Source: a virus
Lineage: Duplodnaviria; Heunggongvirae; Uroviricota; Caudoviricetes
Virus record (IMG/VR): IMGVR_UViG_3300011727_000001
Span: 19,900 to 83,899 of that record
DNA length: 64,000 nt
Reading direction: 5' to 3' (one strand)
This document shows positions 535 through 62,277 of this stretch, piece by piece (position 1 is the first letter of the stretch; every line of letters begins with the position of its first letter). The translations under genes and the position numbers were made by a program. Under the pieces are notes generated by a model, which saw only the letters and a list, made by a program, of their open reading frames with translations, was not told the origin of the DNA and did no database searches.

Positions 535-584
535 TCAGTGCCGTCATGGTAAGTAACTGATTACTTATAATACCGTGACGGCAC
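535..584 (-). promoter_or_regulatory. Copy of the conserved promoter-like motif (GGTAAGTAACTGATTACTTATAATA) sitting in the loop of a 12-bp inverted repeat (TGCCGTCATGG / CCGTGACGGCA), upstream of the capsid gene
   Basis: Motif and inverted-repeat arms read directly from the sequence. Confidence 0.5.
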
Positions 585-605: not shown

Positions 606-637
606 CTTAGTAAGCGCTTACTTATCTGCTATAAAGC
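606..637 (-). promoter_or_regulatory. Conserved promoter-like motif (CTTAGTAAGCGCTTACTTATCTGCTATAAAGC); second copy upstream of the capsid gene
   Basis: Matches the TAAGTnnnTTACTTAT..TATAGC consensus seen 26 or more times in the window. Confidence 0.5.
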
Positions 638-3278: not shown

Positions 3279-3303
3279 ATCACAATCCCGATGTTCCTTA
3301 GAT

Positions 3304-3330
3304 ATTAAGTCAGCGCTTACTTATTTGCAA
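3304..3330 (-). promoter_or_regulatory. Conserved promoter-like motif upstream of the portal gene
   Basis: TAAGTCAGCGCTTACTTATTTGCAAGG, between the terminase stop codon and the portal start. Confidence 0.45.
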
Positions 3331-5273: not shown

Positions 5274-5304
5274 CCTTAACTAAGCGCTTACTTATAGACT
5301 AGCC
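5274..5304 (-). promoter_or_regulatory. Conserved promoter-like motif upstream of the TerS gene
   Basis: CCTTAACTAAGCGCTTACTTATAGACTAGCC, 11 nt upstream of the start codon. Confidence 0.45.
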
Positions 5305-5329: not shown

Positions 5330-5360
5330 TTAATAAGTAATTAATTACTTAATATAATAA
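5330..5360. promoter_or_regulatory. Perfectly palindromic variant of the motif (TAAGTAATTAATTACTTA)
   Basis: 18-bp perfect palindrome read directly; AT-rich surroundings. Confidence 0.4.
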
Positions 5361-5407: not shown

Positions 5408-5665
5408 TCAAAGACCCCCTACCCTAAACCAGTCATACGCTTTTATTGTCGGTCGAACGATTTTACTCATTCCGGAACGCTCAAGCTCGACGATGCCGCG
5501 TTTTGACAAAAATCTTAATGACGTTCGTAGCGAGCCGTAGGCACATTTGTAAGGAAGCGCCTGATGCAGCTCTGTTATAGTGTAGAAAGATCCGACATCT
5601 GCGGCCTCCAATACCAGAAACATAATTTGGCGCTGTTTATCTGTTCGCTTTGGTTTATACGACAT
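5408..5665 (-). CDS. Small winged-helix DNA-binding protein
   Basis: 85 aa. wHTH-like TITELHQALPYKCAYGSLRTSLRFLSKRGIVE. Overlaps the upstream GNAT gene stop. Confidence 0.35.
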   Translation of the reverse strand: MSYKPKRTDKQRQIMFLVLEAADVGSFYTITELHQALPYKCAYGSLRTSLRFLSKRGIVELERSGMSKIVRPTIKAYDWFRVGGL

Positions 5666-8075: not shown

Positions 8076-8089
8076 AAGTCACCTCTTAC

Positions 8090-8779
8090 TTATGATCTTT
8101 GATCAATATATGCGACAAAGGCATCCGCACCTTTCTGCCCCGTCTCATCTTCAATACGGGACATGAAATCGCGAATGATGCGTGATTGAGAGATGGATAC
8201 ACGTTTGAAACCGAGCGCATCAGCGACCGGCGCCGCAGTATCATCAACCTCTTCAGTTTTTTGAATATTAGCCTGCTGCTGAGCCTCAACCGCCTCACTA
8301 ATATTTTCTACGAAGAAATCATCATTGATTTCACCGAGGTCTGCAGTTGAAAAATCCAGCTCTTTTTCATCAAAACCAAGCGTGGTCAGATCGATATCTG
8401 TTTCCGCCAACCGGCGCAGTTCGTCTTGAATGAGAGCCATATCGTAAGATTGGCCCGTCACTCGGTTATCTGCCAAACGAAGTGCGTCGGCTTGGTCTTT
8501 GGTTAGGTCAGAACGAACAATAACCGGCACACGTTTACGACCGAGTTTGATGGCGGCCAGACGACGGCCATGACCTGCGATGATCTCGCCGTTTGTCCAA
8601 ATGACAATAGGCTGTGTCCAGCCATAGGTCAGAATAGAGTTTGCCAGTTTCTCGACTTCACCTTCAGGGTGATTTTTCGCATTAAGCGCATATGGAACGA
8701 GCTTATCGACATCCCATAGCTCAATTTTGGGCTGATCACTCATCATAGGTCTTTCTATAAATATCCATAAGTTCTTCAC
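8090..8779 (-). CDS. ParB-like nuclease domain protein 1; start probably at MMSDQ near 8746
   Basis: ParB N-terminal box GHGRRLAA, plus conserved ParB/Srx-like surroundings. Confidence 0.6.
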   Translation of the reverse strand: MKNLWIFIERPMMSDQPKIELWDVDKLVPYALNAKNHPEGEVEKLANSILTYGWTQPIVIWTNGEIIAGHGRRLAAIKLGRKRVPVIVRSDLTKDQADALRLADNRVTGQSYDMALIQDELRRLAETDIDLTTLGFDEKELDFSTADLGEINDDFFVENISEAVEAQQQANIQKTEEVDDTAAPVADALGFKRVSISQSRIIRDFMSRIEDETGQKGADAFVAYIDQRS

Positions 8780-8905
8780 GAGAAGGTTGGCGATTACTTA
8801 TGCGCGGTTCGAAGAATTCCCCTGCCCCACATTCGTCGCACTCCTCGCGCGTAAACTTCGTGGAATAAAAGCGACATCCTGTGCATTCGGGAAACTTCGG
8901 CTCTT

Positions 8906-9634
8906 TCACTCGGCGATCTCCGCCAATGCCGCATCAAGTTCTTTGTCGGTGATCTGGTCTTGGAGCCCTTTCACATCGAACTGATCAATCAGAAGATGAA
9001 CCAAGGCGTCACCGGCGTTTGTAAGATCATCAGCATCAGTGAAGGATTGGGCTTTTTGCGTTCGAGCGATCAAAGCGGTCAGCCGCTCTGCGTCACGCAG
9101 GGATAGTTTAAAGCGCATTACCGTATGAGTTTTGGGCGCCTTGGCGGCCGGAGGTTCAGGCGCCTCCTCAATCTCCGACGTTTCGAAATTCCCGTCAATT
9201 TCCAGATCGTCGAGCGCTATATTAACACTTGAGAAGATTGTTGTGAGATCCTCGTCCCCATAAGGAAGGAAGCTTTGCAGTTCGTTTGCATCACCCATGC
9301 TTTTAAGAAGTTCGGCAAAGCTCAAGGTGTCATCGGCGCCGTAACGAGCATTATCGAGAACCGAAATCTCTTTGGCGCGCTTATCATCAATCGGCCCCAG
9401 ATTTACGACTGGAATTTCAGAAAGTCCGAGTTTAACGGCTGCCTGCCATCGATGCTCGCCGCCGATAATCTCCAGCACACCATCAACTTCTCGAACAACA
9501 ACAGGCTTGAATAGCCCGTTTCGTTTAATCGACTCCTCAAGTTTCGCTTCATTATCAGGCGACACGAAATTCGTGTTCCAGGAGTTAGCCTGAAGCTTTT
9601 GAGGGGCAATATTGAGCAATTGTGGTTGCGGCAA
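8906..9634 (-). CDS. ParB-like nuclease domain protein 2
   Basis: ParB box GGEHRWQAA. 242 aa. Acidic C-terminal half. Confidence 0.6.
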   Translation of the reverse strand: MPQPQLLNIAPQKLQANSWNTNFVSPDNEAKLEESIKRNGLFKPVVVREVDGVLEIIGGEHRWQAAVKLGLSEIPVVNLGPIDDKRAKEISVLDNARYGADDTLSFAELLKSMGDANELQSFLPYGDEDLTTIFSSVNIALDDLEIDGNFETSEIEEAPEPPAAKAPKTHTVMRFKLSLRDAERLTALIARTQKAQSFTDADDLTNAGDALVHLLIDQFDVKGLQDQITDKELDAALAEIAE

Positions 9635-9646: not shown

Positions 9647-9669
9647 TGTTAAGTAACTACTTACTTACC
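9647..9669. promoter_or_regulatory. Promoter-like motif in a divergent intergenic region (ParB2 gene on minus strand, helicase gene on plus strand)
   Basis: GTTAAGTAACTACTTACTTACC. Confidence 0.4.
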
Positions 9670-11510: not shown

Positions 11511-11550
11511 GCCCTGCTATAAGTAAGTGATTAGTTACTATTAGCAGGGC
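11511..11550 (+). promoter_or_regulatory. Promoter-like motif (TAAGTAAGTGATTAGTTACTA) in the loop of a perfect 9-bp inverted repeat (GCCCTGCTA / TAGCAGGGC), upstream of the plus-strand kinase gene
   Basis: Read directly. Same core as the motif at 40308-40336. Confidence 0.5.
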
Positions 11551-14423: not shown

Positions 14424-14445
14424 ATAAGTAAGCGCTTACCTACAG
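14424..14445 (-). promoter_or_regulatory. Promoter-like motif (ATAAGTAAGCGCTTACCTACAG)
   Basis: Consensus core, 25 nt upstream of the 14399 start. Confidence 0.4.
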
Positions 14446-14740: not shown

Positions 14741-14768
14741 AAATAATAAGTAATCAGTTACTAAATTA
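14741..14768 (+). promoter_or_regulatory. Promoter-like motif in plus orientation (AAATAATAAGTAATCAGTTACTAAATT), followed by the GAGAGAGAAA ribosome-binding site and the ATG at 14784
   Basis: Same sequence as the reverse complement of the minus-strand copies, which shows the motif follows the orientation of the downstream gene. Confidence 0.55.
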
Positions 14769-14783: not shown

Positions 14784-15362
14784 ATGACAACTTCTGAAAA
14801 TGCATTCTTCATCGCTGTATCTAATCGCGCAAAAGACGTGAAAAGCGAAAGCAACAAACAGCTTGCTATGAAGTTAGCAACAGCAATATCGCTTTCGAAA
14901 AACACAAACTTTCTTGAAAAGCTGAATGTTTCATCTGCTGATTTTGTTGATACGAAACACGCTGCTGACAAGCTTTGCTTGTATAGCATCAGACAGATAG
15001 TCAATGTTGTATCTGCTATCACAAAAGCGACAGAACGCGCTTCACTGCATGACATAAGCGAAACAGTCTTTGCAGCGCTTCGCACAATGATCAACTTTTC
15101 AAACGCTGATCGCGCTTTCACAAAAGCTGACTTATGCGCTTGTATTGATAGCGCTGCGAAGATCAGCGACGATAAAAAAGCGCTGATCTATCGTAAGAAA
15201 GCAATGCACGACGCTGCTTATGCAAATCGTCAAATGACAATCGCGCTCAACGTAATGCGCGTTCTGAAAATGATCAAAACAGAAAACAAGTTTGAATATA
15301 CTGTAGCGAAGAATAACAGCGCAGTTAAAGCACTCAATAAGCTGTTTGATGAACATAAGTAA
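14784..15362 (+). CDS. Hypothetical all-alpha protein in an AT-rich island with atypical codon usage
   Basis: 192 aa. Strong preference for A-ending codons (GCA/ACA/AAA), unlike the surrounding genes. Confidence 0.5.
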   Translation: MTTSENAFFIAVSNRAKDVKSESNKQLAMKLATAISLSKNTNFLEKLNVSSADFVDTKHAADKLCLYSIRQIVNVVSAITKATERASLHDISETVFAALRTMINFSNADRAFTKADLCACIDSAAKISDDKKALIYRKKAMHDAAYANRQMTIALNVMRVLKMIKTENKFEYTVAKNNSAVKALNKLFDEHK

Positions 15363-15365
15363 TCA

Positions 15366-15399
15366 CTGACTTAGCGCGCTGAAATATGCGCGCTAAGTC
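15366..15399 (+). terminator. 13-bp perfect inverted repeat (TGACTTAGCGCGC n8 GCGCGCTAAGTCA) directly after the 14784 gene; possible terminator without a clear T-run
   Basis: Read directly. Confidence 0.35.
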
Positions 15400-15430: not shown

Positions 15431-15607
15431 ATGACGAGTAGTTCCATGACATTGATTATTCTCAGTTCCTTGGCGGCTCTAGTCGCACGACGCTCATACC
15501 TCGCATTCGATTATCCGTCCGAGCGAAACATATTCGCCTTGGTGATGTCACTCACTCTGCTGGCCGTAATCGCTGTTGGAAGCATGGAAGTTCCTACGCA
15601 TGTATAG
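15431..15607 (+). CDS. Small membrane protein (two predicted TM segments)
   Basis: MTSSSMTLIILSSLAALVARR...LVMSLTLLAVIAVG. Confidence 0.3.
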   Translation: MTSSSMTLIILSSLAALVARRSYLAFDYPSERNIFALVMSLTLLAVIAVGSMEVPTHV

Positions 15608-17447: not shown

Positions 17448-17559
17448 GATTTTTAACTTTCTCTCTTTTATTCGTAAGCGTTATTGCTTTCGATAATTAG
17501 AGAATAGAACGCTAATTCGTGGTTGTCGGCTGGTAAAACGAGGTTTGTTGCTATGGTTA

Positions 17560-18130
17560 TATTATGCGGAACGGCATCGCCGCGTGTGGAGCCGGAAGGT
17601 TCTTTGGTCAGGCCGTGGATTTCCATGGGCGCGCCGCGGCGTTTACGAGCCGGAGAATTCTTACCCTAGGAGGCGCGAAAAACCTCTTTACGAACCGGAG
17701 GATTTTAGCTGACCCTTAATTCGCGTCTCCATACTATGTATATAGTTATTTAAATAACTAATAAGTTACTTACTAAGTTTGGAAAAAAATTAAGGGTCAG
17801 CGTTTTCAAGGGAACTCTCCGGCTCGTATAAAACGTGGCGCGAAAGTTGGTGGGATGTTATATCCGCGGAGGTGCCGTGGTTGTTCCGAGGTCAGACCAT
17901 GGATGCGCCGCGGTGTTTCCTTGGTTGCTCCATGGGTGGATGGGGAAATTTGCTGGGAGATCCCGTTGAACCATGGCGCGGCCCACAATCCACCGCACTT
18001 ACTTCTCACCAACTTCTCACCAGCTTCTCTTTCATTTCCCACGCATATCTCCTTCACTTCTCATCAGCTCTATAACTCACCACACCTACGCAGCTATCTT
18101 CTCTATGGTGCATACGTCTCTACGCCATGG
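17560..18130. repeat. Complex repeat region: direct repeats of TTTACGARCCGGAGRATT (two copies plus one inverted), of CATGG(G)CGCCGCGGYGTTT (two copies), further CCATGG copies, CTTCTCACCA repeated twice, and a ~140-nt pyrimidine-rich tract (17990-18130)
   Basis: All repeats read directly. Candidate origin or regulatory region. Confidence 0.45.
17705..17802 (-). promoter_or_regulatory. Promoter-like motif (CTAATAAGTTACTTACTAAG) plus palindrome TAGTTATTTAAATAACTA, inside a 14-bp inverted repeat (GCTGACCCTTAATT / AATTAAGGGTCAGC)
   Basis: Read directly. Confidence 0.4.
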
Positions 18131-25740: not shown

Positions 25741-25772
25741 TTAACTCACTGCTTACTTATTGTTTATAGCAA
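25741..25772 (-). promoter_or_regulatory. Promoter-like motif
   Basis: TTAACTCACTGCTTACTTATTGTTTATAGCAA. Confidence 0.45.
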
Positions 25773-29418: not shown

Positions 29419-29450
29419 CTTATAAGTCATCAATTACTTATTTATAGCAG
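29419..29450 (-). promoter_or_regulatory. Promoter-like motif
   Basis: CCTTATAAGTCATCAATTACTTATTTATAGCAG. Confidence 0.45.
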
Positions 29451-33156: not shown

Positions 33157-33187
33157 TTAACTCAGCGCTTACTTATTTTATAGCAAA
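33157..33187 (-). promoter_or_regulatory. Promoter-like motif
   Basis: TTAACTCAGCGCTTACTTATTTTATAGCAAAC. Confidence 0.45.
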
Positions 33188-34673: not shown

Positions 34674-35702
34674 TTAGAGCAGGTTGGAGATGAGGGTGAA
34701 GTGATCTTCGAAGAACCGGTCTGAACCGAGATCATCGAAGTAATACCAATCCGCGTGAGCGGCATCGTCGCCGCCGGCGACAGCGGGAAGATCAATGTGG
34801 TTCGGGATGACAAACATATACATCATCGAAACCACACGACCGCGCAGTGACCGTGACGGATTATCGGCAAGCTCGTGGCTGGCCAGATTATGTTCGATGT
34901 TGGACAGATCGAGACCGGTTTCTTCCTTCAGCTCACGCTTAGCGGCTTCAAGAAAAGTTTCACCGCTTTCAACGAAACCGCCGGGTGTCGCGAGCAATCC
35001 GCGTCCAATTGCTTTACCGCGTGTCACAAGCAGGATCTTACCGCGATGAACAACGAGAGCGTCTGCGGCGAGAAATGGCCCTGTGCCGTATTCTTCACGG
35101 TTACGCTGATATGTATCGACCTCAGCCACAAGGTTTTTGAACGCATCGCTGAAAGTGAATGCTTTCATCCAAGGCAAGAGGCGAGCGGAGACTGCATCTT
35201 GCGGCAGGCGCGGCAGGCGGCGCAAATATTCGATCCGAATATCGGAAGCGTTAATGGTGCCATGCTGGGCTGTCAGCTGAACGGAGTTCCATTCGGGAAA
35301 CATATTCAGATAGTAGGACGAGGCATCTTTGCCGTATCCGGTTAACGCAATCGTTACGTCGCGCAGACCATGATTACGAAAACCACCGCCGTTGAGATGA
35401 TCCAAGACAGCTTCGTTAACGGTTTTGCGCAGTTCATTCGCCCAACGATAGTCCGGCTGGTAATCGCGAAGAGGGGCGATGATAATGCGGCCGGACATTA
35501 CTTCGTGACGGAACACGCTTTCGATCATTTCTTTTCGTTCATCAAAGGTGAACGGGTTGATCGGCGTGCGAGCCTGATAGGCAGAGCCGACAATCAGAAT
35601 GAGAGTTTCAACCTTGTTCAAGGCTTCGCGAATAACGTGCTCATGCCCGATATGCAGTGGCTGGAAGCGCCCAATGTAAACGCCGTAATTGTAGTCAGCC
35701 AT
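34674..35702 (-). CDS. Bifunctional NMN adenylyltransferase (NadM-type) with C-terminal Nudix hydrolase
   Basis: N-terminal GRFQPLHIGH nucleotidyltransferase motif. C-terminal Nudix box GGFVESGETFLEAAKRELKEETGL. Confidence 0.8.
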   Translation of the reverse strand: MADYNYGVYIGRFQPLHIGHEHVIREALNKVETLILIVGSAYQARTPINPFTFDERKEMIESVFRHEVMSGRIIIAPLRDYQPDYRWANELRKTVNEAVLDHLNGGGFRNHGLRDVTIALTGYGKDASSYYLNMFPEWNSVQLTAQHGTINASDIRIEYLRRLPRLPQDAVSARLLPWMKAFTFSDAFKNLVAEVDTYQRNREEYGTGPFLAADALVVHRGKILLVTRGKAIGRGLLATPGGFVESGETFLEAAKRELKEETGLDLSNIEHNLASHELADNPSRSLRGRVVSMMYMFVIPNHIDLPAVAGGDDAAHADWYYFDDLGSDRFFEDHFTLISNLL

Positions 35703-35898
35703 GAAAGATATTCCTTTTTATGTTGAAGATTTTATCGCCGCATCGCGCCACTTCCCCGTCGAAATCATCAATAGGATCAGAGTAGTAGGTGCTGCCGTCT
35801 TTCACGCCGGATATCTTGTGAGCTACACCGGCGACGATTATGCGATCGCTTCCAATGTTGAGAAATCTTGCGCTATGCAGAGTTGCTTCGGTTTTCAT
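35695..35898 (-). CDS. Hypothetical protein
   Basis: 67 aa. Confidence 0.3.
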   Translation of the reverse strand: MKTEATLHSARFLNIGSDRIIVAGVAHKISGVKDGSTYYSDPIDDFDGEVARCGDKIFNIKRNIFHG

Positions 35899-35905: not shown

Positions 35906-35932
35906 CTATGAGTAATCAGTTACTTATTACGC
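35906..35932 (-). promoter_or_regulatory. Promoter-like motif
   Basis: CTATGAGTAATCAGTTACTTATTACGC. Confidence 0.45.
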
Positions 35933-38854: not shown

Positions 38855-38888
38855 GTTAAGTAATCAGTTACTGATTATTGCAAATAAA
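38855..38888 (-). promoter_or_regulatory. Promoter-like motif
   Basis: CCGTTAAGTAATCAGTTACTGATTATTGCAAATAAA. Confidence 0.45.
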
Positions 38889-39361: not shown

Positions 39362-39954
39362 TCTTCTTCCACCGTTTCATCATCGCCGCCTGGATCGAAA
39401 TCGATCAATACTCGCCGCGGTCGGCCGCCTTCACCATATTCGATGTAAACGGGGTATGAACCATCACCATAAAAGGTCGAGATCATCACACCCATACCAT
39501 CGTGTCCGCCATCATGCTGAAAAGATGCGAAACCTTTATCAACCGTAGTTGGTGTGAAGGGATTTGCTGCTTCAAATTCTTTATAAATACGGTCGATCAG
39601 ATCACGTTTGGCGATATTCTCTGGCGTATTCCATTTTTGATGTTCAGGCTGAACACCTTCGATGCGTGGGTTGGCCATCAACCAGTTTCGCCACTCTGTA
39701 TGTTCATGAAGGAAGTTGTCGCGATTGTTAGCCCAGCGCTGAAATTCACGACTGCGGTCATTATATCCGGAGCGCTTAAAGAAGCGATCACAAATGCCAT
39801 GCCAGTTATCGCCCAGATCTTTCGGACGAGCTTCGTTATTATCCTTCAGAACATAGCAGCCATCACCGATCCAGATAGAGCCGGCGTCAACATCAATGGA
39901 ACTTACTTCCAAGAAATTTGGAAATTTTGGATGAGAGTTTTGAACATCAGCCAT
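39358..39954 (-). CDS. Hypothetical protein
   Basis: ~198 aa from MADVQ. Confidence 0.35.
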   Translation of the reverse strand: MADVQNSHPKFPNFLEVSSIDVDAGSIWIGDGCYVLKDNNEARPKDLGDNWHGICDRFFKRSGYNDRSREFQRWANNRDNFLHEHTEWRNWLMANPRIEGVQPEHQKWNTPENIAKRDLIDRIYKEFEAANPFTPTTVDKGFASFQHDGGHDGMGVMISTFYGDGSYPVYIEYGEGGRPRRVLIDFDPGGDDETVEEE

Positions 39955-40304
39955 CACGCATACTCCTCCGCCCAAGTCTCTGCGAAACGGCAGTTCCCCG
40001 GCATGTCAGCAAACATCGGGCGAATTTCTTCGCGCTTATAACCGGCCAAACCACAGCCGATCGGCGTGACATAAAAGGTCATTTCCTGGTGGGATCGGGC
40101 GAAGGTTTTAAATTCTTCGACTGATTTGCGAATGCGTTCGAGTGGCAAGGTGCGGATCTGATGATCCTTGGTTGGAATGGCATAACTGCGCCCCTGCAAG
40201 CCTTCACCTTGAAACAGAATTGCTCCGTGTTTGCGCAGCGCGTCCAATGCAGCTCCGGCACCGTGTCGTCCAGCGAGGTTGGAGCCAAAAACAAAAATAT
40301 CCAT
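39954..40304 (-). CDS. Hypothetical protein, possible Rossmann-like nucleotide-binding fold (tentative)
   Basis: Pattern IFVFGSNLAGRHGAGAA...GRSYAIPTKD...VTPIGCGLAGY. No firm family assignment. Confidence 0.3.
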   Translation of the reverse strand: MDIFVFGSNLAGRHGAGAALDALRKHGAILFQGEGLQGRSYAIPTKDHQIRTLPLERIRKSVEEFKTFARSHQEMTFYVTPIGCGLAGYKREEIRPMFADMPGNCRFAETWAEEYA

Positions 40305-40307
40305 TTT

Positions 40308-40336
40308 CTTTCTCTCTATCAGTAAGTGATTAGTTA
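40308..40336 (-). promoter_or_regulatory. Promoter-like motif (variant AGTAAGTGATTAGTTACTATTA)
   Basis: Near-identical to the copy at 11521-11545. Confidence 0.45.
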
Positions 40337-40770
40337 CTATTATCGACGGAATTAATGCCTAATGTGGCCAAATAATCCGCTCTTTCATTTAGCGAATGAC
40401 CGGTATGACCTCGAATCCAGTTGAAGCTGACCTCATGCGCCTTGCAAAGCGCGTCAAGTTCCTTCCAGAGGTCGACGTTCTTGATGGCTTTACCTTTTGT
40501 TTTCCAGCCACGCTTTACCCAGCCATCGATCCATTTAGTCATACCATTCCGCACATATTGGCTATCGGTATAAACTTCGACGATCTGCCTTGGTCGCGTA
40601 ATAGCTTTCAATCCTTGAATTACAGCCATCAGCTCCATACGATTATTGGTCGTATCAATTTCCCCGCCATAAATTTCTTTTGAATGGCCTTTGTATCGAA
40701 GTATCGCCGCCCACCCGCCAACTCCCGGATTTGGTCTGCAGCCGCCATCTGTGTAAATTTCAATTGTCAT
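40330..40770 (-). CDS. rnhA: Ribonuclease HI
   Basis: IEIYTDGGCRPNPGVGGWAAIL, TNNRMEL, YTDSQYV and HTGHSLNERAD active-site motifs. Confidence 0.85.
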   Translation of the reverse strand: MTIEIYTDGGCRPNPGVGGWAAILRYKGHSKEIYGGEIDTTNNRMELMAVIQGLKAITRPRQIVEVYTDSQYVRNGMTKWIDGWVKRGWKTKGKAIKNVDLWKELDALCKAHEVSFNWIRGHTGHSLNERADYLATLGINSVDNSN

Positions 40771-41276
40771 TAAGGTTCAACCCTTTCAGCAAAAGCGACC
40801 ACTTGAACGCCCTTCGAGGTATTCCAATCGATGCAGCCACGAGCTGGCTCATCCGGAACGAGAAAGATCCGGAGCGTATGCTCGTCAGCGTTTTTAGGTT
40901 CTTCTGGGGAGAGAGTGGCTTCGAACGTATCTACCGCGTTCATTGTCTCCCAAAACTTACGCCACATATCGAACGCAACTTCGGGGTTTTCAGCGCGAAC
41001 AAACTGATCTGCGCTGTCGCCGTTGGCATCGTAGCCGGTGATGAAGTAGAGATTGAAGGCCGGAGTGATTTCAGCATCCTCGGCTTTCTCGGTTTCACCT
41101 TCCATAATAATCGTGTCGTCAAACGTGCGAATATCGTCCGTTTCGGCCCAATCCAACTTGGAGGCGTTTTCCCGAAGGGCGGCGAATTTCTCAGCGTCCT
41201 CGGCAGATTTTGCTTGAACAATAGCCTGTTCAATAAGGTAGGCGTCGCGACCGCGCTTAACCAAGTAATTCTGCAT
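40770..41276 (-). CDS. Hypothetical acidic protein
   Basis: 168 aa. Confidence 0.35.
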   Translation of the reverse strand: MQNYLVKRGRDAYLIEQAIVQAKSAEDAEKFAALRENASKLDWAETDDIRTFDDTIIMEGETEKAEDAEITPAFNLYFITGYDANGDSADQFVRAENPEVAFDMWRKFWETMNAVDTFEATLSPEEPKNADEHTLRIFLVPDEPARGCIDWNTSKGVQVVAFAERVEP

Positions 41277-41290
41277 TTTCTCTCTCCTGC

Positions 41291-41316
41291 ACTAAGTGCT
41301 TACTTATTTATAGCGG
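41291..41316 (-). promoter_or_regulatory. Promoter-like motif
   Basis: ACTAAGTGCTTACTTATTTATAGCGG. Confidence 0.45.
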
Positions 41317-43044: not shown

Positions 43045-43587
43045 TCAGACGTGTTTCCACGTCGTGCGTTTAATGATGTTACTAAGGGTTGATCGAGCTA
43101 TCCCGAATTGATCCATAAGATCAGGCACACTCTTTGTTTCCGCCAACTTGCGAATTTCGATCACTTGATCGGCAGTAAGTTTGGCGTTTGAATTTTGGGA
43201 GCCTCGGCCGGTCTTAAGACCGTTGCGATGAGCATGGCGCTCGTTATCGCTTCCGGATGACCATTCGAGATTGGTTAGAGCGTTATTCTCTTTGTCGCCG
43301 TCGATATGGTTCACTTGCGGAAGATTACTCGGATTAGGCAGAAAGCGCAGAGCGACCGCTCGGTTCACAAGAACGGACTTTGTAAATCCCATCCAAGTCA
43401 TGTTGAAATAAACACGACCGGATTTCTTGTGAACGCGAACCTTGATTGGGTCATACTGATCTGAAACCAACTCGCCTTTATTCGTAGCCCTGCGGCAGCG
43501 TAAAATGGAGCCATCCTCTTTCGGAACGAGATAGCGATATTTGATCGCGTGAAGAATCCATTTGTCCTTATTAAAACGGCGCGTCAC
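43045..43587 (-). CDS. HNH homing-type endonuclease
   Basis: NHIDGDKENNALTNLEW...RHAHRNG HNH motif, plus a C-terminal HTH-like region. Confidence 0.65.
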   Translation of the reverse strand: MTRRFNKDKWILHAIKYRYLVPKEDGSILRCRRATNKGELVSDQYDPIKVRVHKKSGRVYFNMTWMGFTKSVLVNRAVALRFLPNPSNLPQVNHIDGDKENNALTNLEWSSGSDNERHAHRNGLKTGRGSQNSNAKLTADQVIEIRKLAETKSVPDLMDQFGIARSTLSNIIKRTTWKHV

Positions 43588-44021: not shown

Positions 44022-44050
44022 ATTAGCTAATTGATTACTTATTATAGCAA
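44022..44050 (-). promoter_or_regulatory. Promoter-like motif
   Basis: ATTAGCTAATTGATTACTTATTATAGCAA. Confidence 0.45.
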
Positions 44051-44055: not shown

Positions 44056-44706
44056 TTAAAGGGTGTCGGGTGGGTTTGCGAAATGACGTCGCCGGTTCAT
44101 AGCGACTTCAAATGCGTCGAGAAAATACTCTTTGGCTTCGTAGGCGCTCAGCATTGCGATTTCGTATGGCGCGCAAAGTGTCTCTGCGTGTAGCATGTCT
44201 GATGGATCATCCGGCGAGTGCGGCACGATCTGTCGGAATTCTGCAGTGCAAACGGCCTTATCCGCGATCTTAATCTCAGGAGGGAAGGGGTTGGCCAAAT
44301 TGAAGCGCTTGGCGAATACCAAGTCCGCCCGATCTTCGATAGGCTTCATGATAGCGTGAACAGCCGGATGATGTTTCACTGGCTGGATCATATCGCCAGT
44401 CATGTATTCCGGAGCGTCATGCAGTAACGCCTCAAGCTCTAAATCCGGGCGATTAAGATACTCGACCATGAATTTAGCACAGAGAACAGAATGTTCGGCC
44501 ACGGAGAATGAAATACGGCTGCGAAACTGTTTGTGCTGCGTAGCGCCATTCCAGCGATTGGCGTTAGCCAAATGATGCGCCACGACTTCAATATCGATCT
44601 CCTCGGCACTTGGATGAAATGGGTAAATCTTACGCCCATTCGCTGTGTTCATGGACGGGCCGCGATCTGTGGGATGCGCCGGAGGTTGATAAAAAGGAGA
44701 CATCAT
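44056..44706 (-). CDS. HD-domain phosphohydrolase (YfbR-like 5'-deoxynucleotidase family)
   Basis: VAEHSV...LLHDAPEYMTGD, an HD motif with the YfbR-type H...HD...E...D spacing. Confidence 0.6.
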   Translation of the reverse strand: MMSPFYQPPAHPTDRGPSMNTANGRKIYPFHPSAEEIDIEVVAHHLANANRWNGATQHKQFRSRISFSVAEHSVLCAKFMVEYLNRPDLELEALLHDAPEYMTGDMIQPVKHHPAVHAIMKPIEDRADLVFAKRFNLANPFPPEIKIADKAVCTAEFRQIVPHSPDDPSDMLHAETLCAPYEIAMLSAYEAKEYFLDAFEVAMNRRRHFANPPDTL

Positions 44707-48610: not shown

Positions 48611-48635
48611 TGTTTTCTCTCTCTCTCTCGATCTG

Positions 48636-48666
48636 TAACTAAGTGATTACTTATTGTTTATAGCAG
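48636..48666 (-). promoter_or_regulatory. Promoter-like motif upstream of rIIA, followed upstream by a 12-bp perfect hairpin (48676-48704)
   Basis: CTAAGTGATTACTTATTGTTTATAGCAGACG. Hairpin ATACTCGCGGAT / ATCCGCGAGTAT. Confidence 0.5.
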
Positions 48667-48709
48667 ACGTTGAGAGGGATACTCGCGGATTCTGCATCCG
48701 CGAGTATGG

Positions 48710-51558: not shown

Positions 51559-51586
51559 ATCTAAGTGCTTACTTATTATATAGCGC
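51559..51586 (-). promoter_or_regulatory. Promoter-like motif abutting a 10-bp hairpin (51583-51612) that may terminate the upstream Grx/RNR transcript
   Basis: CTAAGTGCTTACTTATTATATAGCGCG. Hairpin GCGCGTGTGA / TCACACGCGC. Confidence 0.45.
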
Positions 51587-51629
51587 GTGTGAAATGGGTC
51601 ACACGCGCTATTTTCGCTTATTTCACGGA

Positions 51630-51878: not shown

Positions 51879-53647
51879 GCCACACAGGCATTTTCACGCG
51901 CCTTCTTTTGCGCCGCGTTTTCACCATTGCGATAGTAAAGCGATTTCAGACCGCCCCGCCATGCTGCGCGGATAATGTCGATATCGTCCTTCATGGTAGC
52001 TTCGTTGCGAAGAACGATGTTCATGGACTGTCCCTGATCGACATAAACGCCACGATCAATGCCCTGTCGGACAACTTCATGCTGATCAATGTCGATCCAC
52101 GGTTTGAAGACTTCCTTTTCCAGATCGGTCAGAAAATCGAGATGATCAACGCGACCGCCTTGCTTCATAACTGAACGCCAGACGTCGGCGGTATCTTTTC
52201 CGTGACGCTGGAGAACTTCGCGGAAGATTGGACAGTATTGCGTGAAGATAACCTTCGCAGCATCATTTTCAAAAACGACAGCCTCTTCCGGCTCAATCGA
52301 CTTCGAAACCTGTCCACAAATGACTGAGGAGGATTGCGTCGGCGCGATAGCGTTAACGGTCAGATTACGCATACCGTAACCCTTCATCCCCTCTGGCTCA
52401 CCAAATTTCTCCGCCAGCCAGCGGGACGCGGCGATGGATTCTTCGTGAATATACTTATGAACTTCGATGTTCAAAGCCCGTGCATCTTCACTTTCGAACG
52501 GGATCATCTTCGATTTAAGCAGTGAGTGATAACCCAGGGTGCCAAGACCGAGCGCACGCCAGCGAACGGCAAAACGATGAGCATCTGCCAGCAAACGATA
52601 CTTAGGATTTTTATCCGGCTCAATCTTGTCGATGTAATCCGACATCACAGCATCGAGGAAATAAATCATTTCACGAATGAATGGGGTATTTTTCCATTCA
52701 TCATAATAGAGAAGATTTGCCGATGAGAGATTGCACACAAAACTTTCATTCGGGCTGGAAGGCAGCATGATTTCGGTGCAGAGATTTGATGCGTGAATAT
52801 CGATTCCAAGGTCTTTCAGAACCTGTGGCTTTGCGCGATTAGCGTTGCCTGGGAAGAAGATAAACGGACGACCGGTTTCGCGGCGTTTATTACGAATTTT
52901 CGCCATCAAATTACGACGAGGAGAGCCTTTTGGATCTGTTTCAAGGGCTTCCATAAATTCGTCAGTGAGACCAACAGCGAAATCAAGATGCTGGATCTTA
53001 TGATGCACACCGCCAGCGATGGAGCGCATTTTCAGCCATTCTTCAATGTCCGGATGATCAACATTGAGATAAATGCAGCATGAGCCGCGACGAACGGACG
53101 ACTGCGAAACCACCTCGATATCCTCCTGAAGGAGGCGTGCGAAGTGAACCGGCCCGTTGGACTCGCCACCTTTGCTGATCGGTGTTCCAAACGGACGCAA
53201 TGCGCTCATGGCAACCGATGTGCCAGCACCGGCACCGGTCATAGCGCCAACTTCTGCAACCTTCCACAGAATGGAGTCGAGATTGTCGTCCATATAGGAG
53301 CCGTTACATGAAATTGGCAGCGCACGTCCGGCGCCAAAGTTTGACCAGACCGGCGAAGATGGCGAGAACCAGCCACGCTTGGCGCCATGGCGCAAGGTCG
53401 GAAGAGGAAAGCCGAGAATATTTTCGGCAGCTTCAATCATATCTTCCAAGCGATCCACAGCGGCGGCGAGGAGGGCGTCATGCGCCACTCCCGCTTTTAA
53501 ATAACCGCGTGAAAGCACCTGTAGAGAGATTTCATTGAGGTGGTGATAATCTGGACGGCTCATATGTTTCTTATCCTTAAAAGTCATCGTCTTCCGCGGC
53601 ATCTGCTTGCGTGTAGCTGGTTGGTTCGGAGTTGAAGAAATCGACAC
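51866..53647 (-). CDS. nrdA: Ribonucleotide reductase class I alpha subunit (no ATP cone); real start probably an internal Met (about 53587 or 53563), to avoid overlap with nrdB
   Basis: Active-site NLCTEI, a downstream active-site Cys region, and a C-terminal CVAC redox pair. Confidence 0.75.
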   Translation of the reverse strand: MSISSTPNQPATRKQMPRKTMTFKDKKHMSRPDYHHLNEISLQVLSRGYLKAGVAHDALLAAAVDRLEDMIEAAENILGFPLPTLRHGAKRGWFSPSSPVWSNFGAGRALPISCNGSYMDDNLDSILWKVAEVGAMTGAGAGTSVAMSALRPFGTPISKGGESNGPVHFARLLQEDIEVVSQSSVRRGSCCIYLNVDHPDIEEWLKMRSIAGGVHHKIQHLDFAVGLTDEFMEALETDPKGSPRRNLMAKIRNKRRETGRPFIFFPGNANRAKPQVLKDLGIDIHASNLCTEIMLPSSPNESFVCNLSSANLLYYDEWKNTPFIREMIYFLDAVMSDYIDKIEPDKNPKYRLLADAHRFAVRWRALGLGTLGYHSLLKSKMIPFESEDARALNIEVHKYIHEESIAASRWLAEKFGEPEGMKGYGMRNLTVNAIAPTQSSSVICGQVSKSIEPEEAVVFENDAAKVIFTQYCPIFREVLQRHGKDTADVWRSVMKQGGRVDHLDFLTDLEKEVFKPWIDIDQHEVVRQGIDRGVYVDQGQSMNIVLRNEATMKDDIDIIRAAWRGGLKSLYYRNGENAAQKKARENACVACEA

Positions 53648-54572
53648 GCGTTGGCGCCAGAAGACCCTCGGTCATCCAGAAGGTCGCCTGCTTCTGCTCC
53701 GGCGTGACGTCGAATGTTGGGGTGTAGCCAATATCCAAAAGGCTCTCATTGAGGCGCTCGCGCACATAGCCCTTAAGGATGTCGGCGTTTAAACCAGGGG
53801 CTTCATAACCATCGAGCATCCAATCAATCAGATTGCACTCTGCGGTGTATGTGACCTCAGTTTCTTCCTTAACGCGTTGCAACAGTTCATCATCGAAAAG
53901 CTCCGGATATTGCTCGCGAAGGGTATTGATGATTTTACTGCCGGCCTGACCGTGGAGCAGTTCTTCGTTACGGGTATATTTGACCTGCTGAGAGGTGTCC
54001 TTCAGGACGTTTTTGTTACGGTTGAGCCGCAAAATCACGTAGAAGGGAGCGAAAAGACTGACATTTTCCACGAAAAGCGTGAAAAGGATCAGGCTGTAAA
54101 TATACTGCTTACGCTGATTATGAGGATAGACACGCTCGGCGTGTTTGTTGAGATAGATTACTCGACCGGCGAGGGCCGGAACCTTCATAATTTCGCGGAA
54201 AATACCGAAAAGACCGAGCTTTTTGAGGAGCTTTTCATAAGCATTGTTATGAATGGTCTCCACATATGCCATGGTAATACCAAGGTCTTTAATCGATGGA
54301 TGCGGAAGATGGTCACCGAGACGCTTCCAGAATTCTTTTACGGAGATTTCAATCTGAGCGATTGCTGCCAAAACGCGCGTTACCACAAGGCGCTCGTGGT
54401 CGGTCAGTTTGAGCTTAAAGTCCACCACATCGCTATCGAAGGTAAACTTCTTCGCAGTCCAGAAGCCATCTTGCATGGCTTCGATGAATGTCTGCGCCCA
54501 CGGATAGTAATCAGGCATCCGCTCGATCTGCGGATCGAACAGCTTAACGATCTGGGTATCAGTCGCTTTCAT
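53577..54572 (-). CDS. nrdB: Ribonucleotide reductase class I beta subunit
   Basis: Ferritin-like di-iron ligand spacing (EISVKEFW...E..H) and the acidic C-terminal tail EDDDF used for alpha binding. Confidence 0.75.
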   Translation of the reverse strand: MKATDTQIVKLFDPQIERMPDYYPWAQTFIEAMQDGFWTAKKFTFDSDVVDFKLKLTDHERLVVTRVLAAIAQIEISVKEFWKRLGDHLPHPSIKDLGITMAYVETIHNNAYEKLLKKLGLFGIFREIMKVPALAGRVIYLNKHAERVYPHNQRKQYIYSLILFTLFVENVSLFAPFYVILRLNRNKNVLKDTSQQVKYTRNEELLHGQAGSKIINTLREQYPELFDDELLQRVKEETEVTYTAECNLIDWMLDGYEAPGLNADILKGYVRERLNESLLDIGYTPTFDVTPEQKQATFWMTEGLLAPTRVDFFNSEPTSYTQADAAEDDDF

Positions 54573-54603: not shown

Positions 54604-54634
54604 TAATAACTAATTGCTTACTTATTATCTAGGG
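54604..54634 (-). promoter_or_regulatory. Promoter-like motif upstream of nrdB
   Basis: ATAATAACTAATTGCTTACTTATTATCTAGG. Confidence 0.45.
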
Positions 54635-55685: not shown

Positions 55686-55696
55686 TGTGTTACCTA

Positions 55697-55726
55697 TCTA
55701 AGTGATTACTTATTAAATTATAGCAA
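55697..55726 (-). promoter_or_regulatory. Promoter-like motif
   Basis: TCTAAGTGATTACTTATTAAATTATAGCAA. Confidence 0.45.
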
Positions 55727-55854
55727 TCGGGTAGCGCGATGCGCTTATAATTTACTGAGCGGGATGAGCCGCTGGAGTGTGTTAAAAAGCCGGCCGAGCA
55801 TAACCCGGCCGGACATAACCTTCATATTTGCCCATAACGCGATATGTTATGAAG

Positions 55855-59412: not shown

Positions 59413-59769
59413 TTATTCTCCTTGATTAATCGCAGCCGACAGATCGCCGGACATTGCTGCGCGTTGAATATTGGTCTCGCGTGCGGGACGAGCCGTTGGT
59501 TTCTTTTGTGTGGATGTGACGTTGGCCGAAGAATGCTTCGCACTGCGCGTGGAGATATTGGCGCGAGGATTACGATCACCGGTCTGCTCGGTTTGTTTGA
59601 TTACCGTGCAGCGATCGCCGTCTTTGTTTTTATACATTTGGGCGGTCGGGTAGGGCAGATCGCGAATGACCTGCTCAACAATGGTGGTCTTTTCGCCAGT
59701 TTTCTTACCCTTTGCATCGAAAACCGATACAATGTGCTGGTTTGCGAGTTTGACGGTATAGAGTTGCAC
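59413..59769 (-). CDS. Hypothetical protein (GTG start)
   Basis: 118 aa, basic C-terminal half. Confidence 0.35.
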   Translation of the reverse strand: MQLYTVKLANQHIVSVFDAKGKKTGEKTTIVEQVIRDLPYPTAQMYKNKDGDRCTVIKQTEQTGDRNPRANISTRSAKHSSANVTSTQKKPTARPARETNIQRAAMSGDLSAAINQGE

Positions 59770-59778: not shown

Positions 59779-59806
59779 CTAAGTATTTGATTACTTACTG
59801 TAACAA
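59779..59806 (-). promoter_or_regulatory. Promoter-like motif
   Basis: CCTAAGTATTTGATTACTTACTGTAACA. Confidence 0.45.
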
Positions 59807-59834: not shown

Positions 59835-60926
59835 TTAGGATTCTTCGTAAACTGATCGGGCAGCTTTCAGCACGTCATTGGCGGCTTTTTTAACCGCATC
59901 GCGATCAACATCAGGCTCAAGATCGACCTTATCCACGTAAGCGGTAACGGACTGATCCAGTGTCTGGCCGGACTTAGCTGGTGTCGCGCCTTGACGTTGG
60001 GAGGTCTGAGCCGGCGGTGCCTGAATTGAAGTGCCGAGCGCGCCGTGCGTTTCAAAGAACCGTTTCAACTCGGCCATATCTTCGGACGTCATTTGACTGC
60101 CACGAAAGCGAACATAATTCCCATCGCAAATGAGTTTAATTTCATCCTCGTCACGACCAGATACGTCGATGAATTTCGGCGCATGGGTATCCATGAAACG
60201 AACAGATTCATCATTCACCAACAGAAAGCCTGCTTTTGAACCAATATCGCCCCAGGTTTGATGCGTCGTGGCGCCGATTGAGTAAACTCCACCCTGCATG
60301 ACTTTATGATTGTGATAGTCACCGGCCATTACACGGCGAAACCCGAACTTGGACAATGCGACATCAGTCAGTCCGTGATCAGGCATACCCGGAATAACTC
60401 CGTCGATACCGGCGTGAATGAAAACGTCTGTTTGGTCGATAAGACCGGTAGCAGTGGCGATGCTCTGCAAATCTCGCAGAAGTTCGTCGCGCGACGAGCG
60501 CCAAGGCACAAAGCCGAGATAGTAATCATCTTCGGTATGCACGAGCTGAGGCTCATTGATCACGATAAAGCGGCCTTTATCGGATTGTGTTTGCGCCAAT
60601 GTTTGAATTGCTGAGGACAGCTCACTGGTATCTTTGGATTTAAGATCGTGATTTCCTGGAATGGCATAAATCGTAACGCCCATATCCAAGATTTCTTTGA
60701 TCGTCGCTTGTGTAGGATTAAGAACCTCTGGATCGATCGAGCCTCGAACGTGAAACACGTCTCCGGCGATTACCATCACCTTACCATCGAGCTTGGTTAA
60801 CTCAGTGGCAGCGCGCTTCATTTCATCCAAAATAATGCGCAAGCGGTTATTCACGCCATCCGGATTGATGCGTGAGAACATTGACCAGTTATGGCAGTGA
60901 ATGTCTGATAGAACGGCGTAAGTCAT
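59835..60926 (-). CDS. sbcD: SbcD/Mre11-family nuclease (calcineurin-like phosphoesterase)
   Basis: Motif I LSDIHCH, II AGDVFH, III GNHD, and later H/GD motifs. Confidence 0.8.
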   Translation of the reverse strand: MTYAVLSDIHCHNWSMFSRINPDGVNNRLRIILDEMKRAATELTKLDGKVMVIAGDVFHVRGSIDPEVLNPTQATIKEILDMGVTIYAIPGNHDLKSKDTSELSSAIQTLAQTQSDKGRFIVINEPQLVHTEDDYYLGFVPWRSSRDELLRDLQSIATATGLIDQTDVFIHAGIDGVIPGMPDHGLTDVALSKFGFRRVMAGDYHNHKVMQGGVYSIGATTHQTWGDIGSKAGFLLVNDESVRFMDTHAPKFIDVSGRDEDEIKLICDGNYVRFRGSQMTSEDMAELKRFFETHGALGTSIQAPPAQTSQRQGATPAKSGQTLDQSVTAYVDKVDLEPDVDRDAVKKAANDVLKAARSVYEES

Positions 60927-61210
60927 AACGCGGGAACTTCCACTTTAATAGGCTCAGGAAACCAAAAACCTTGACGATGATAAGTGTCTTGTTTGATGAG
61001 AAATATTTGAGCGTCGTGAAGGTCGAACTTTTGCTCGACCAGCTTCTCCAACACGCACATTCTTCGAGATTTTTGGCGACCGGTAACACACTCTGACCCT
61101 GCAAACGCAGTCTCAAAGAACATTGATCCAACCACGAATTCGTTGGTTGCGCGTTTAGCTGCGGAATACATCATATAAACGCCACGTATATGGGGAGTTG
61201 GAACAATCAT
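60923..61210 (-). CDS. Hypothetical protein
   Basis: 95 aa. Confidence 0.3.
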   Translation of the reverse strand: MIVPTPHIRGVYMMYSAAKRATNEFVVGSMFFETAFAGSECVTGRQKSRRMCVLEKLVEQKFDLHDAQIFLIKQDTYHRQGFWFPEPIKVEVPAL

Positions 61211-61226
61211 CTTTCTCTCTCGTGTT

Positions 61227-61255
61227 CACTAAGTGATTACTTATTATTTATAGCG
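61227..61255 (-). promoter_or_regulatory. Promoter-like motif (closest to consensus)
   Basis: CTAAGTGATTACTTATTATTTATAGCGC. The reverse complement is followed by GAGAGAGAAAG and the ATG. Confidence 0.5.
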
Positions 61256-61278: not shown

Positions 61279-62235
61279 TTATTTCACAGAGTTTTTGAAA
61301 TTATCCAGGTTGATCAATTTAGGCCGGCAACTGAGTGTTGCGTTTCCATTTTTAACCGCTTTAAGCATGTAAGTGATGATCTTGTGCATGGCTCGTTGAG
61401 CATCACCATTCCCGGTTCCAAACTTACCGTTCCAGGTTTTTGTATCATCTTCATCTCCATTAACTCCGCACTGAAGATAAGAGTTGAGATAATAATGCGC
61501 ATTACCCTGGCCATTCATCAAAACAGCGCCGGTTTTATCATTGTAGGCTTCAAGCATCATAAGGGTAGAAGAACCCGAATCCCGCCGAAGCATCAGGAGC
61601 GCGCTTGCCAAGAATGGAACTTTAAATCGAGAACTAACAGGGTTAATTTGATCCAAAATCTCTAGCTCGGTTTGGAAAAATTTAAGCTGAGAGTCGCGGT
61701 CATTCTTGCCAGGCGCGCTTTTTACGTAGGAGCTCGCAAGTGTTAACGCTTCTCCAAAACTTCCTTTCGCCAACCAGCTGGTTTTTAAATTCATACCGGC
61801 GGCGCTCATGAAACCCTGAATCGCATCAGGAGAGGTTTTGACTGAACGGCGACTGTCGTAACTGTTATAAAGTCTTTCCGATTCAGCTTTTAAACTAATT
61901 TTAGGATCAAGAATGTCATAAACAATAACAAGCAATTCATCGAGGAAGCTAGCCTTACGATCAATCAAATACGAGCGCGTATGACCATCGACTTTGACGC
62001 AATTTCCATATGTATCTCGCGCCATAAATGCAACAGCATGTTCAGGCTGAAGGGTTTTAAGGTGCAAAGCTGCGCGTAAAGTCTCATTTCTCTGAATTGA
62101 GTTGCGTGGAATTTTCACCCATTCAGTAGCTTTCATAACCTCAGCGGAAACTCGAATATTGTTAACTACAATAGAGGTCGCCGGTGTAACCGGCGACACG
62201 ATTTTAGGTGATGCTGCGCGAAGTGCTTGTGCCAT
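61279..62235 (-). CDS. Hypothetical protein with a DGHTR motif; possible DUF262/ParB-like nuclease superfamily (tentative)
   Basis: GNCVKVDGHTRSY resembles the DGQHR/DGQQR motif of ParB-superfamily DUF262/DndB proteins. Confidence 0.3.
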   Translation of the reverse strand: MAQALRAASPKIVSPVTPATSIVVNNIRVSAEVMKATEWVKIPRNSIQRNETLRAALHLKTLQPEHAVAFMARDTYGNCVKVDGHTRSYLIDRKASFLDELLVIVYDILDPKISLKAESERLYNSYDSRRSVKTSPDAIQGFMSAAGMNLKTSWLAKGSFGEALTLASSYVKSAPGKNDRDSQLKFFQTELEILDQINPVSSRFKVPFLASALLMLRRDSGSSTLMMLEAYNDKTGAVLMNGQGNAHYYLNSYLQCGVNGDEDDTKTWNGKFGTGNGDAQRAMHKIITYMLKAVKNGNATLSCRPKLINLDNFKNSVK

Positions 62236-62249: not shown

Positions 62250-62277
62250 CTAAGTAAACAATGACTTATTCATAAAG
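62250..62277 (-). promoter_or_regulatory. Promoter-like motif
   Basis: CTAAGTAAACAATGACTTATTCATAAAG. Confidence 0.4.

Follow-up and report, generated by a model that had tools for sequence, protein, structure and literature searches.

A recurrent palindrome before the genes of a phage of the Caudoviricetes: a candidate operator overlapping sigma-70-type promoters

What is the short, nearly palindromic sequence that recurs in front of so many genes in one stretch of phage DNA, and what might read it? The stretch is a 64,000-nucleotide piece of a virus of the Caudoviricetes (IMG/VR record IMGVR_UViG_3300011727_000001, positions 19,900 to 83,899; hereafter the window). The copy that raised the question lies at 61227-61255, with CGCTATAAATAATAAGTAATCACTTAGTG on the minus strand; the open reading frame (ORF) 60923-61210 has its ATG 16 nt downstream. 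The original prediction, made from the letters of the window, took such copies for promoters of a phage-encoded single-subunit RNA polymerase or of a dedicated sigma or transcription factor. Our analysis makes us lean towards another answer, namely that the motif is the operator of a phage-encoded dimeric regulator and overlaps host-type (sigma-70-type) promoters, nearly every lytic promoter among them. We found no prior description of the motif in the open-access literature searched.

A palindrome before at least 25 genes

The 16-mer core by which the motif was first described had 23 matches in the window at up to two mismatches, compared with 0.04 expected. After aligning the copies in gene-sense orientation, we re-defined the motif as AAGTAA-N4-TTACTT. 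Over the whole window this pattern occurred 3 times without mismatch, 21 times with at most one and 31 times with at most two, while block shuffles gave 0, 0.2 and 3.1, respectively. When the count was confined to the intergenic 12% of the window (7.6 kb, 44% GC), there were 19 matches versus 0.04 in shuffles at up to one mismatch and 26 versus 0.56 at up to two. The coding 88% held no match at up to one mismatch and 2 at up to two. Comparison with shuffled intergenic sequence had been named beforehand as the test for this motif, and the two distributions are clearly different. Altogether, about 28 distinct intergenic sites precede at least 25 ORFs, far above the shuffled expectation, which bears out the earlier impression of a motif recurring upstream of genes. 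Between the end of the palindrome and the start codon lie 0-71 nt, in most cases 10-28 nt. By contrast with the lytic genes, no copy precedes the maintenance genes: none was found at parA-parG in the window and none at parA and repC of the related phage B1VFA.

The full symmetric form, (T)AAGTAA-N4-TTACTT(A), measures 16-18 bp and is built of four tetramer boxes, TAAG-TAAK-NN-MTTA-CTTA, with its half-sites spaced by one helical turn. Many of the window copies have a degenerate outer right box (TTAGTG, TTAGAT), which leaves them with the shorter TAAGT-N4-ACTTA. Perfect copies of TAAGT-N8-ACTTA number 9 and those of TAAGT-N4-ACTTA number 7. The core had been described as a 5-bp inverted repeat, TAAGT/ACTTA; its symmetry holds, but this repeat is just one register of the longer four-box palindrome. 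The motif had also been said to follow the orientation of the downstream gene, and this is true of its asymmetric flank: GCTATA[AT] occurs 28 times in the window (16.5 expected), and in the 11 copies that a palindrome follows, it lies upstream on the gene's strand in 11 of 11. All three of the inverted repeats reported around the motif are present, at 538-551/571-584 (14 nt, 93%), 11510-26/11535-51 (17 nt, 88%, motif included) and 17708-21/17788-801 (14 nt, 100%).

Two promoter layouts and their conservation

The palindrome occurs in two fixed geometries. In class A, represented by 10-12 window copies before rIIA, the ribonucleotide reductase (RNR) operon, a nuclease operon and other DNA-metabolism operons, the order is aaACC-N8-9-CCC-N10-(T)GCTATAA(A), 0-5 nt, palindrome, Shine-Dalgarno sequence (SD) and ATG. 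GCTATAA is a good -10 element, and 8 of 12 window copies have TGCTATAAA, an extended -10. No conserved -35 hexamer was found among these copies; the upstream boxes AACC and CCC lie at about -38 and -27. If transcription starts at the position predicted, about 7 nt past the -10, the class A palindrome would span about -5 to +13. In a scan for E. coli-type promoters, the two best matches within 40-60 kb were class A copies. A class A-like promoter at 20153 lacks the palindrome, palindromes occur elsewhere without GCTATAA, and the gap between the two varies; GCTATAA and the palindrome are therefore separable modules.

To follow the arrangement beyond the window, we looked for relatives. Near-identical DNA was not found by megablast, the window having no match in the phage collection and short matches only among plasmids. 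The closest relative overall is an IMG/VR contig whose portal protein is 83% identical, while a scan of genome contigs gave no relative above 65% portal identity. By portal protein, the nearest named phages are the Rhizobium phages B1VFA, V1VFA-S and RHEph10 (63% identity), the next being the SSU5-like phage-plasmids (~51%). A circular plasmid of Shinella zoogloeoides (117 kb) is syntenic. Further relative contigs of ~112-114 kb come from Ancylobacter, Magnetospirillum and Massilia, and shorter ones from Chelativorans, Methylocystis and Oxalobacter. The authors of B1VFA described its phage-plasmid features and did not mention the motif (PMC12509600).

In class B, the palindrome fills the spacer of a near-consensus promoter, CTTGCA/CTTGAC-N17-TAnnAT, and overlaps the first two bases of the -10. 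The portal promoter at 3302-3330 is the sole example in the window; relatives supply the post-capsid and tail ones (B1VFA 60130 and 73108; Shinella 19585, 638 and 9484). We aligned the TerL-portal spacer in ~57 relatives, and CTTGnn-N17-TAnnAT was present in ~45 of them. Across this alignment the -35 (CTTGAC/CTTGCA) and the -10 (TAnnAT) are constant at 17-bp spacing, whereas the palindrome between them differs symmetrically by lineage: TAAGTAA..TTACTTA, TCAGTCA..TGACTTA, AAGTCAC..GTGAnTT and GTCAATCAATATTGA / GGTCAATCAATATTGATTTA. Elements of sigma-70 type that are conserved among relatives, either a -35 and a -10 separated by 16-18 bp or an extended -10, are present in class B and class A alike, and at both an inverted repeat overlaps the spacer, the -10 or the predicted +1. 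The major-capsid gene has paired sites 57 bp apart, a pair also seen in B1VFA (59109/59160) and in the Shinella plasmid.

The palindrome itself is equally widespread among these relatives. B1VFA, with 59% GC, carries 30 perfect copies of AAGTAA-N4-TTACTT and ~11 with one mismatch, in both promoter contexts; they precede the orthologues of portal, terS (two sites), capsid (two sites), helicase, rIIA, RNR-beta and others. The Shinella plasmid has sites at the same syntenic promoters, and in the SSU5-like E. coli phage Cyrano the short form TAAGTA-NN-TACTTA recurs in ~17 distinct copies. One site lies within an operon, its spacer serving as SD (GAGG/GGAC) and its end abutting the start codon (ATG) of the gene that follows the second ParB_N gene. 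This site is found at 8076 in the window, 51169 in B1VFA and 28680 in Shinella, and may serve as a roadblock to transcription or in the control of translation. When IMG/VR was scanned with TAAGTAANNNNTTACTTA, most matches were single chance ones in AT-rich contigs, and only a few multi-match contigs were informative. Judged by sequence, the arrangement is conserved in the whole family of ~110-120 kb phage-plasmids. Because the palindrome is invariant within a genome, changes symmetrically between lineages and is present across host classes, sequence-specific recognition by a phage-encoded dimer is suggested; the same three features speak against a host factor, a sigma element or a structure formed by the nucleic acid. 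Of the earlier proposal, the association with promoters stands, as does the dedicated factor, since conservation across phages of different host classes points to a phage-encoded transcription factor.

Some other features accompany the class A promoters. GC-rich hairpins without a T-run often stand directly before or around them (51580-51611, 48665-48700, 55730-55745). Many early genes have purine-repeat leaders, GAGAGAGA(AA), rather than a classical AGGAGG SD (48611-48636, 61211-61226, 41277-41289, 40305-40319, 14764-14783). In B1VFA, the class A module is conserved over ~70 bp (GCGCTCAyCACCTG..CTCCC..GCGCTATAA..palindrome; for example at record positions 104700-104765, 114750-114810 and 118890-118950), several copies being ~80% identical to each other, which suggests a regulatory cassette spread by duplication or recombination.

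Mode of action, candidate binders and rival explanations

How might such sites work? Where transcription starts, which protein binds and in which direction it regulates, we infer from the arrangement just described. The 16-18 bp palindrome would be the binding site of a phage-encoded dimer, placed on a second module, the sigma-70-type promoter in its class A or class B layout. The dimer on its sites would gate the access of RNA polymerase, or its escape, at essentially every lytic promoter. In class A, the effect would be repression because of the site's position over the predicted +1. In class B, with the palindrome in the spacer, it would probably be repression too, with activation in a temporal switch as the alternative. 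Negative control by a phage-encoded dimer is the version we favour because the sites lie over the +1 or fill the spacer of near-consensus promoters.

A Pfam scan of all remaining ORFs of the window, concatenated, showed no Cro/CI-type helix-turn-helix, HTH_3 or sigma domain. The best candidate for the binder, as far as sequence and a structural model can tell, is an 85-aa protein encoded at 5408-5665. It matches Pfam Penicillinase_R (BlaI/MecI) with E=2.4e-4 and 21.8 bits, compared with a curated cut-off of 22.6, and one homologue, 90% identical, has a precomputed PF03965 match. Its AF2 model (pLDDT 85.8) is a confident winged helix. Foldseek relates the model to small dimeric DNA binders (AF1382, the pNOB8 centromere binder AspA and MarR/ArsR-type proteins, TM 0.75-0.80); the fold is generic, without the C-terminal dimerisation/sensor domain of BlaI. 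The operon that ends with this gene is conserved (ParB_N, ParB_N, ABC-type ATPase(s), ..., winged helix), and an orthologue occupies the same position in every lineage examined, including B1VFA (gene 084), the Shinella plasmid, Cyrano (CYRAN_123) and IMG/VR relatives of every palindrome type. Alternative candidates, likewise judged by sequence, are the two ParB_N proteins encoded in this operon. In RNA-seq of the Cyrano lysogen, the ParB-ParB-ABC-ABC-winged-helix operon was at background (5-9.5 versus a median of 9.8), while a CI-like repressor, CYRAN_45, and a ribbon-helix-helix (RHH)-like protein, CYRAN_117, were expressed (PMC9928086 S1 table). Should either the winged-helix protein or a ParB_N protein turn out to be the binder, the system would therefore belong to the lytic programme and not to lysogenic maintenance.

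Several other candidates were set aside. CYRAN_45 and CYRAN_117 have no detectable homologue in the window or in B1VFA and were for that reason not adopted as family-wide binders. The window also has a type Ib partition module at 12716-13616, made up of ParA (219 aa) and a ParG-like RHH protein (85 aa, Pfam ParG E=1.1e-4). Repeats of AAATAGC/TAGCTA, which may be centromere boxes, are found upstream of parA (12678-12697) and once more at 14454-14500. The ParG-like protein (13359-13616) more likely binds the repeats adjoining parA than the palindrome. The recognition helix of the winged-helix protein varies between some lineages (YGSLRTSLRF versus YGSLRKIIKL), and we looked for a code linking helix to half-site; no clean match emerged, the helix differences tracking phylogeny.

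Several points weigh against an operator read by a phage regulator. The promoter elements are predicted by consensus, and the scan for E. coli-type promoters was not enriched overall (14 matches versus 19.5 in shuffles). The AACC and CCC boxes of class A are left unexplained; another factor, such as a phage sigma, could be reading class A promoters. A pure repressor made in the lytic cycle would shut off the late genes too. Near-identical recognition helices (TKQSLQFSIRAL) accompany both TAAGTA and AAGTCA half-sites. A more specific version of the operator reading is that one small winged-helix protein, the one with its gene next to terS, reads a lineage-specific palindromic 'address' at essentially every lytic promoter. 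As a single-factor temporal switch, it would shut class A from its place over the +1 and license or time class B from within the spacer, and half-site variants would be regulatory incompatibility groups. Its scope is the ~110-120 kb phage-plasmids of Alpha-, Beta- and Gammaproteobacteria with the half-sites AAGTAA, AAGTCA, CAGTCA and TCAATC. We regard this version as tentative and, on balance, rather unlikely.

Could the motif instead be a polymerase or sigma recognition sequence? A promoter of a T7-like or N4-like single-subunit RNA polymerase would fit the high conservation, the length of ~25 bp and the position directly before genes, and the end ...CACTTAG loosely resembles ...CACTATAG, a resemblance read from sequence and nothing more. 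No such polymerase was found in the window, as had been noted before, and the annotations of the complete B1VFA genome, of the 100 kb of Cyrano examined and of the 39-kb Shinella plasmid segment examined contain none. A T7-like promoter is moreover an asymmetric sequence of ~23 bp in fixed register, whereas the motif is two-fold symmetric, lies inside canonical -35/-10 elements at late genes, takes a different position relative to the -10 in each class and shifts by 0-5 nt within class A. The varying register fits an operator adjoining a sigma-70-type promoter rather than a polymerase recognition sequence, and the single-subunit polymerase, one of the suggestions of the original prediction, retains next to no probability. 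The suggestion of a sigma-like gene elsewhere in the genome fared better. B1VFA_132 carries Sigma70_r2 (E=4.4e-7), and the closest relative has a syntenic orthologue ~9 kb past the position of the window's right end, in the order CobS-like, sigma, p133, PolIII-alpha; by this synteny the window phage very probably encodes a sigma as well. Such a factor, T4 gp55-like, might read GCTATAA with or without the AACC/CCC boxes, making class A sigma-dependent and the palindrome secondary. The lack of a -35 in class A and its non-canonical upstream boxes, conserved in the window and B1VFA, agree with this. However, GCTATAA fits an ordinary -10, often an extended one; the palindrome is present in Cyrano, yet no sigma was found in the 100 kb of it examined; and a symmetric element at variable distance from GCTATAA is not itself a sigma element. 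At best, a sigma explains the promoter module of class A, and it is compatible with the operator we favour. A phage sigma may thus read class A promoters but cannot account for the palindrome, and we consider it unlikely as the explanation of the motif.

Two further readings concern what the palindrome does once promoters are granted. One is action at the RNA level, by a 5' leader or hairpin controlling stability or translation of class A mRNAs. The predicted class A start puts the motif at the extreme 5' end beside the SD, and the intra-operon site, kept in B1VFA and Shinella, contains the SD and abuts the ATG. Nevertheless, the hairpins are weak and inconsistent in shape (mean -1.9 kcal/mol, several at 0), variation breaks pairs without compensation, the common right arm TTAG disrupts pairing, and class B copies, being upstream of the predicted start, would be left out of the transcripts of that promoter. 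The sites had no Rfam match, and we think this reading very improbable. The other is a late-gene activator site like that of P1 Lpa, turning class B on from the spacer and possibly shutting class A, as in a phi29 p4-like switch. The P1 record annotates its late promoters as a -10 element and, 4 nt upstream of it, a '-22 region' of 9 bp, with boxes AAGTGACTA (LPpro), AAGTGATTT (LPlyz) and ATGTGACTT (LPpac), and lpa lies immediately upstream of LPpac and pacA. The P1 box and the position of lpa match the AAGTnA half-site and the order regulator-sites-terS, and the silence of the winged-helix operon in the Cyrano lysogen places it in the lytic programme. On the other hand, class B promoters, with near-consensus -35 and -10 at the optimal 17-bp spacing, are unlike activator-dependent promoters. 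Late promoters of P1 have no -35, and the box in them is not palindromic. Lpa matches BPP1_LPA (PF25716) at 3e-57, while no window ORF matched this family; Lpa and the winged-helix protein are unrelated in sequence, with different Pfam families (BPP1_LPA and Penicillinase_R) and an hhalign probability of 0.1% for Lpa against the winged-helix alignment, so that homology with Lpa was rejected. We judge the activator improbable, about as much so as the sigma.

The sites, their surroundings and known systems

The sites and the candidate binders are listed in Table 1.

Table 1. Palindrome sites and candidate regulator genes of the window.
Feature	Coordinates	Strand	Remarks
Class A, putative promoter-operator	61227..61254	-	GCTATAA 61254-61248, 4 nt, palindrome 61242-61227; ATG 61210
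Class A	55696..55724	-	GCTATAA + 5 nt + AAGTAATCACTTAGAT; ATG 55685; B1VFA orthologue also has site (114794)
Class A	51559..51584	-	GCTATAT + palindrome; -10 in 3' arm of hairpin 51580-51611, CCC box in loop
Class A before rIIA	48637..48664	-	ATG 48610; B1VFA site 487 before its rIIA
Class A	44025..44048	-	TGCTATAAT joined to palindrome, 0-nt gap; among two top sigma-70-like matches (10/12, with TG)
Class A before ORF 40770-41276	41290..41314	-	
Class A before ORF 32708-33109	33159..33184	-	
Class A	29424..29448	-	SD immediately after palindrome
Class A	25743..25770	-	Right arm TGAGTT
Class A	11516..11536	+	Inside 17-nt inverted repeat 11510-11551; B1VFA orthologous site 47836
Class B, predicted portal promoter	3302..3330	-	TTGCAA 3330-3325, 17-bp spacer holding palindrome 3322-3307, -10 TAATAT
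Predicted capsid promoter, proximal site	551..566	-	TTGCAA-N18-TATTAT then palindrome; 14-nt inverted repeat 538-584 around
Predicted capsid promoter, distal site	608..623	-	57 bp upstream of proximal site, centre ~-55
Site before terS (ORF 4598-5263)	5278..5293	-	14 nt from start codon
Perfect palindrome AAGTAATTAATTACTT	5335..5350	-	Between winged-helix gene and terS; B1VFA 54299
Intra-operon site	8076..8091	-	Spacer = SD (GAGG); end abuts ATG of ORF 7743-8075
Perfect palindrome, divergent region	9651..9666	.	ParB_N operon (-) and UvsW-like helicase (+)
Site, divergent intergenic region	14426..14441	.	ORF 14172-14399 (-), ORF at 14508 (+)
Site	14748..14763	+	20 nt before ORF 14784-15362
Site	15357..15372	+	13 nt before ORF 15386-15607
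Degenerate copy	17756..17771	.	AT-rich core of 14-bp perfect inverted repeat 17708-17801; 450-bp non-coding region
Site before ORF 35695-35898	35910..35925	-	B1VFA 13375
Site before 668-aa ORF 36832-38838	38858..38873	-	-10-like GCAATAA
Site before ORF 39954-40304	40320..40335	-	
Site at rIIB stop codon	44766..44781	-	Then TATGAT + 5' hairpin; before ORF 44056-44706
Site before RNR small subunit gene 53577-54572	54608..54623	-	B1VFA 115903
Site before ORF 59413-59769	59781..59796	-	
Site before ORF 61279-62235	62252..62267	-	
Candidate regulator, 85-aa winged-helix protein	5408..5665	-	Directly upstream of sites 5335/5278 and terS
Two ParB_N genes, alternative candidate binders	8090..9634 (8906-9634, 8090-8746)	-	Equally conserved in family

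The window encodes TerL and TerS together with the portal protein, rIIA and rIIB, NAMPT and NadM-Nudix, RNR alpha and beta, ThyX and dUTPase, SbcCD, the UvsW-like helicase, the two ParB_N proteins and the ParA/ParG-type partition pair. An HNH_3 endonuclease-like ORF (Pfam E=2.5e-5) amid the DNA-metabolism genes, placed at 43045-43587 from the ORF order in the concatenated query, is probably a homing endonuclease. The non-coding region 17448-17900 (450 bp) holds several ~20-mers containing CCGGAG/CTCCGG, in addition to the AT-rich core within its 14-bp perfect inverted repeat, and could be an origin, a pac site or an iteron region; a similar sequence, aactctccggatcg, lies at ~5390-5410, adjoining site 5335. 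The window has 49% GC overall, and the sampled relatives mostly ~55-65%. Its portal gene (1638-3278) has a GC of 0.49 and a GC at third codon positions (GC3) of 0.51, compared with 0.60 and 0.79 for the 83%-identical relative's portal gene (L124:10001-11640). This compositional shift suggests adaptation to a host of much lower GC.

Resistance genes are found on some of the SSU5-like and related phage-plasmids, a group that is common in Enterobacteria, Rhizobiales and other Proteobacteria. Almost nothing has been described of how these phage-plasmids programme their transcription. One conserved operator would give a family-wide promoter map and a few candidate master regulators, and it would offer a handle with which induction could be controlled or detected. 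The symmetric, lineage-specific changes of the half-sites also provide a natural system in which the co-evolution of regulator and operator could be followed.

How does the arrangement compare with systems already known? Genome-wide operators of phage repressors include the gp71 'stoperators' of mycobacteriophage L5 and the conserved inverted repeats of Streptomyces phage phiC31. Like these and like the C1 operators seen in the P1 record, the palindromes form a set of tens of short conserved intergenic sites, at or just downstream of promoters, that one phage protein could read. The C1 and L5 sites, however, are asymmetric and their proteins are lysogeny repressors, while the best candidate here is silent in a related lysogen; and here late structural promoters carry the site too. 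The KorA/KorB system of IncP plasmid RK2 also has palindromic operators at many promoters, under an autoregulated central operon that includes a ParB-family protein. The window shares the palindromic operators at many promoters and the ParB-family protein in a central operon, but the sequence and positions of the operator differ, the targets are phage lytic genes and the ParB_N proteins are only candidate binders. The promoter-early stem-loops (PeSLs) of T4-type phages resemble the three window copies whose promoter lies inside a stem-loop (14-17 nt arms); with arms at only 3 of ~28 copies, though, the conserved part here is the palindrome-promoter core and not the stem.

The late promoters of P1 offer the closest parallel. 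Both phages are phage-plasmids, both have an AAGTnA-containing box between the -35 position and the -10 (the class B box, centred at ~-20.5, shares AAGTnA with that of P1), and in both a regulator gene, here a candidate, stands directly upstream of a late promoter and the small-terminase gene. In place of the P1 arrangement, the class B site is a two-fold palindrome and comes with a good -35; the same site also lies downstream of the -10 at early/DNA-metabolism promoters, and Lpa shows no relationship to the candidate regulator, a winged-helix protein. The motif set belongs with the known phage global regulator-operator sets, in a group of poorly studied and widespread phage-plasmids.

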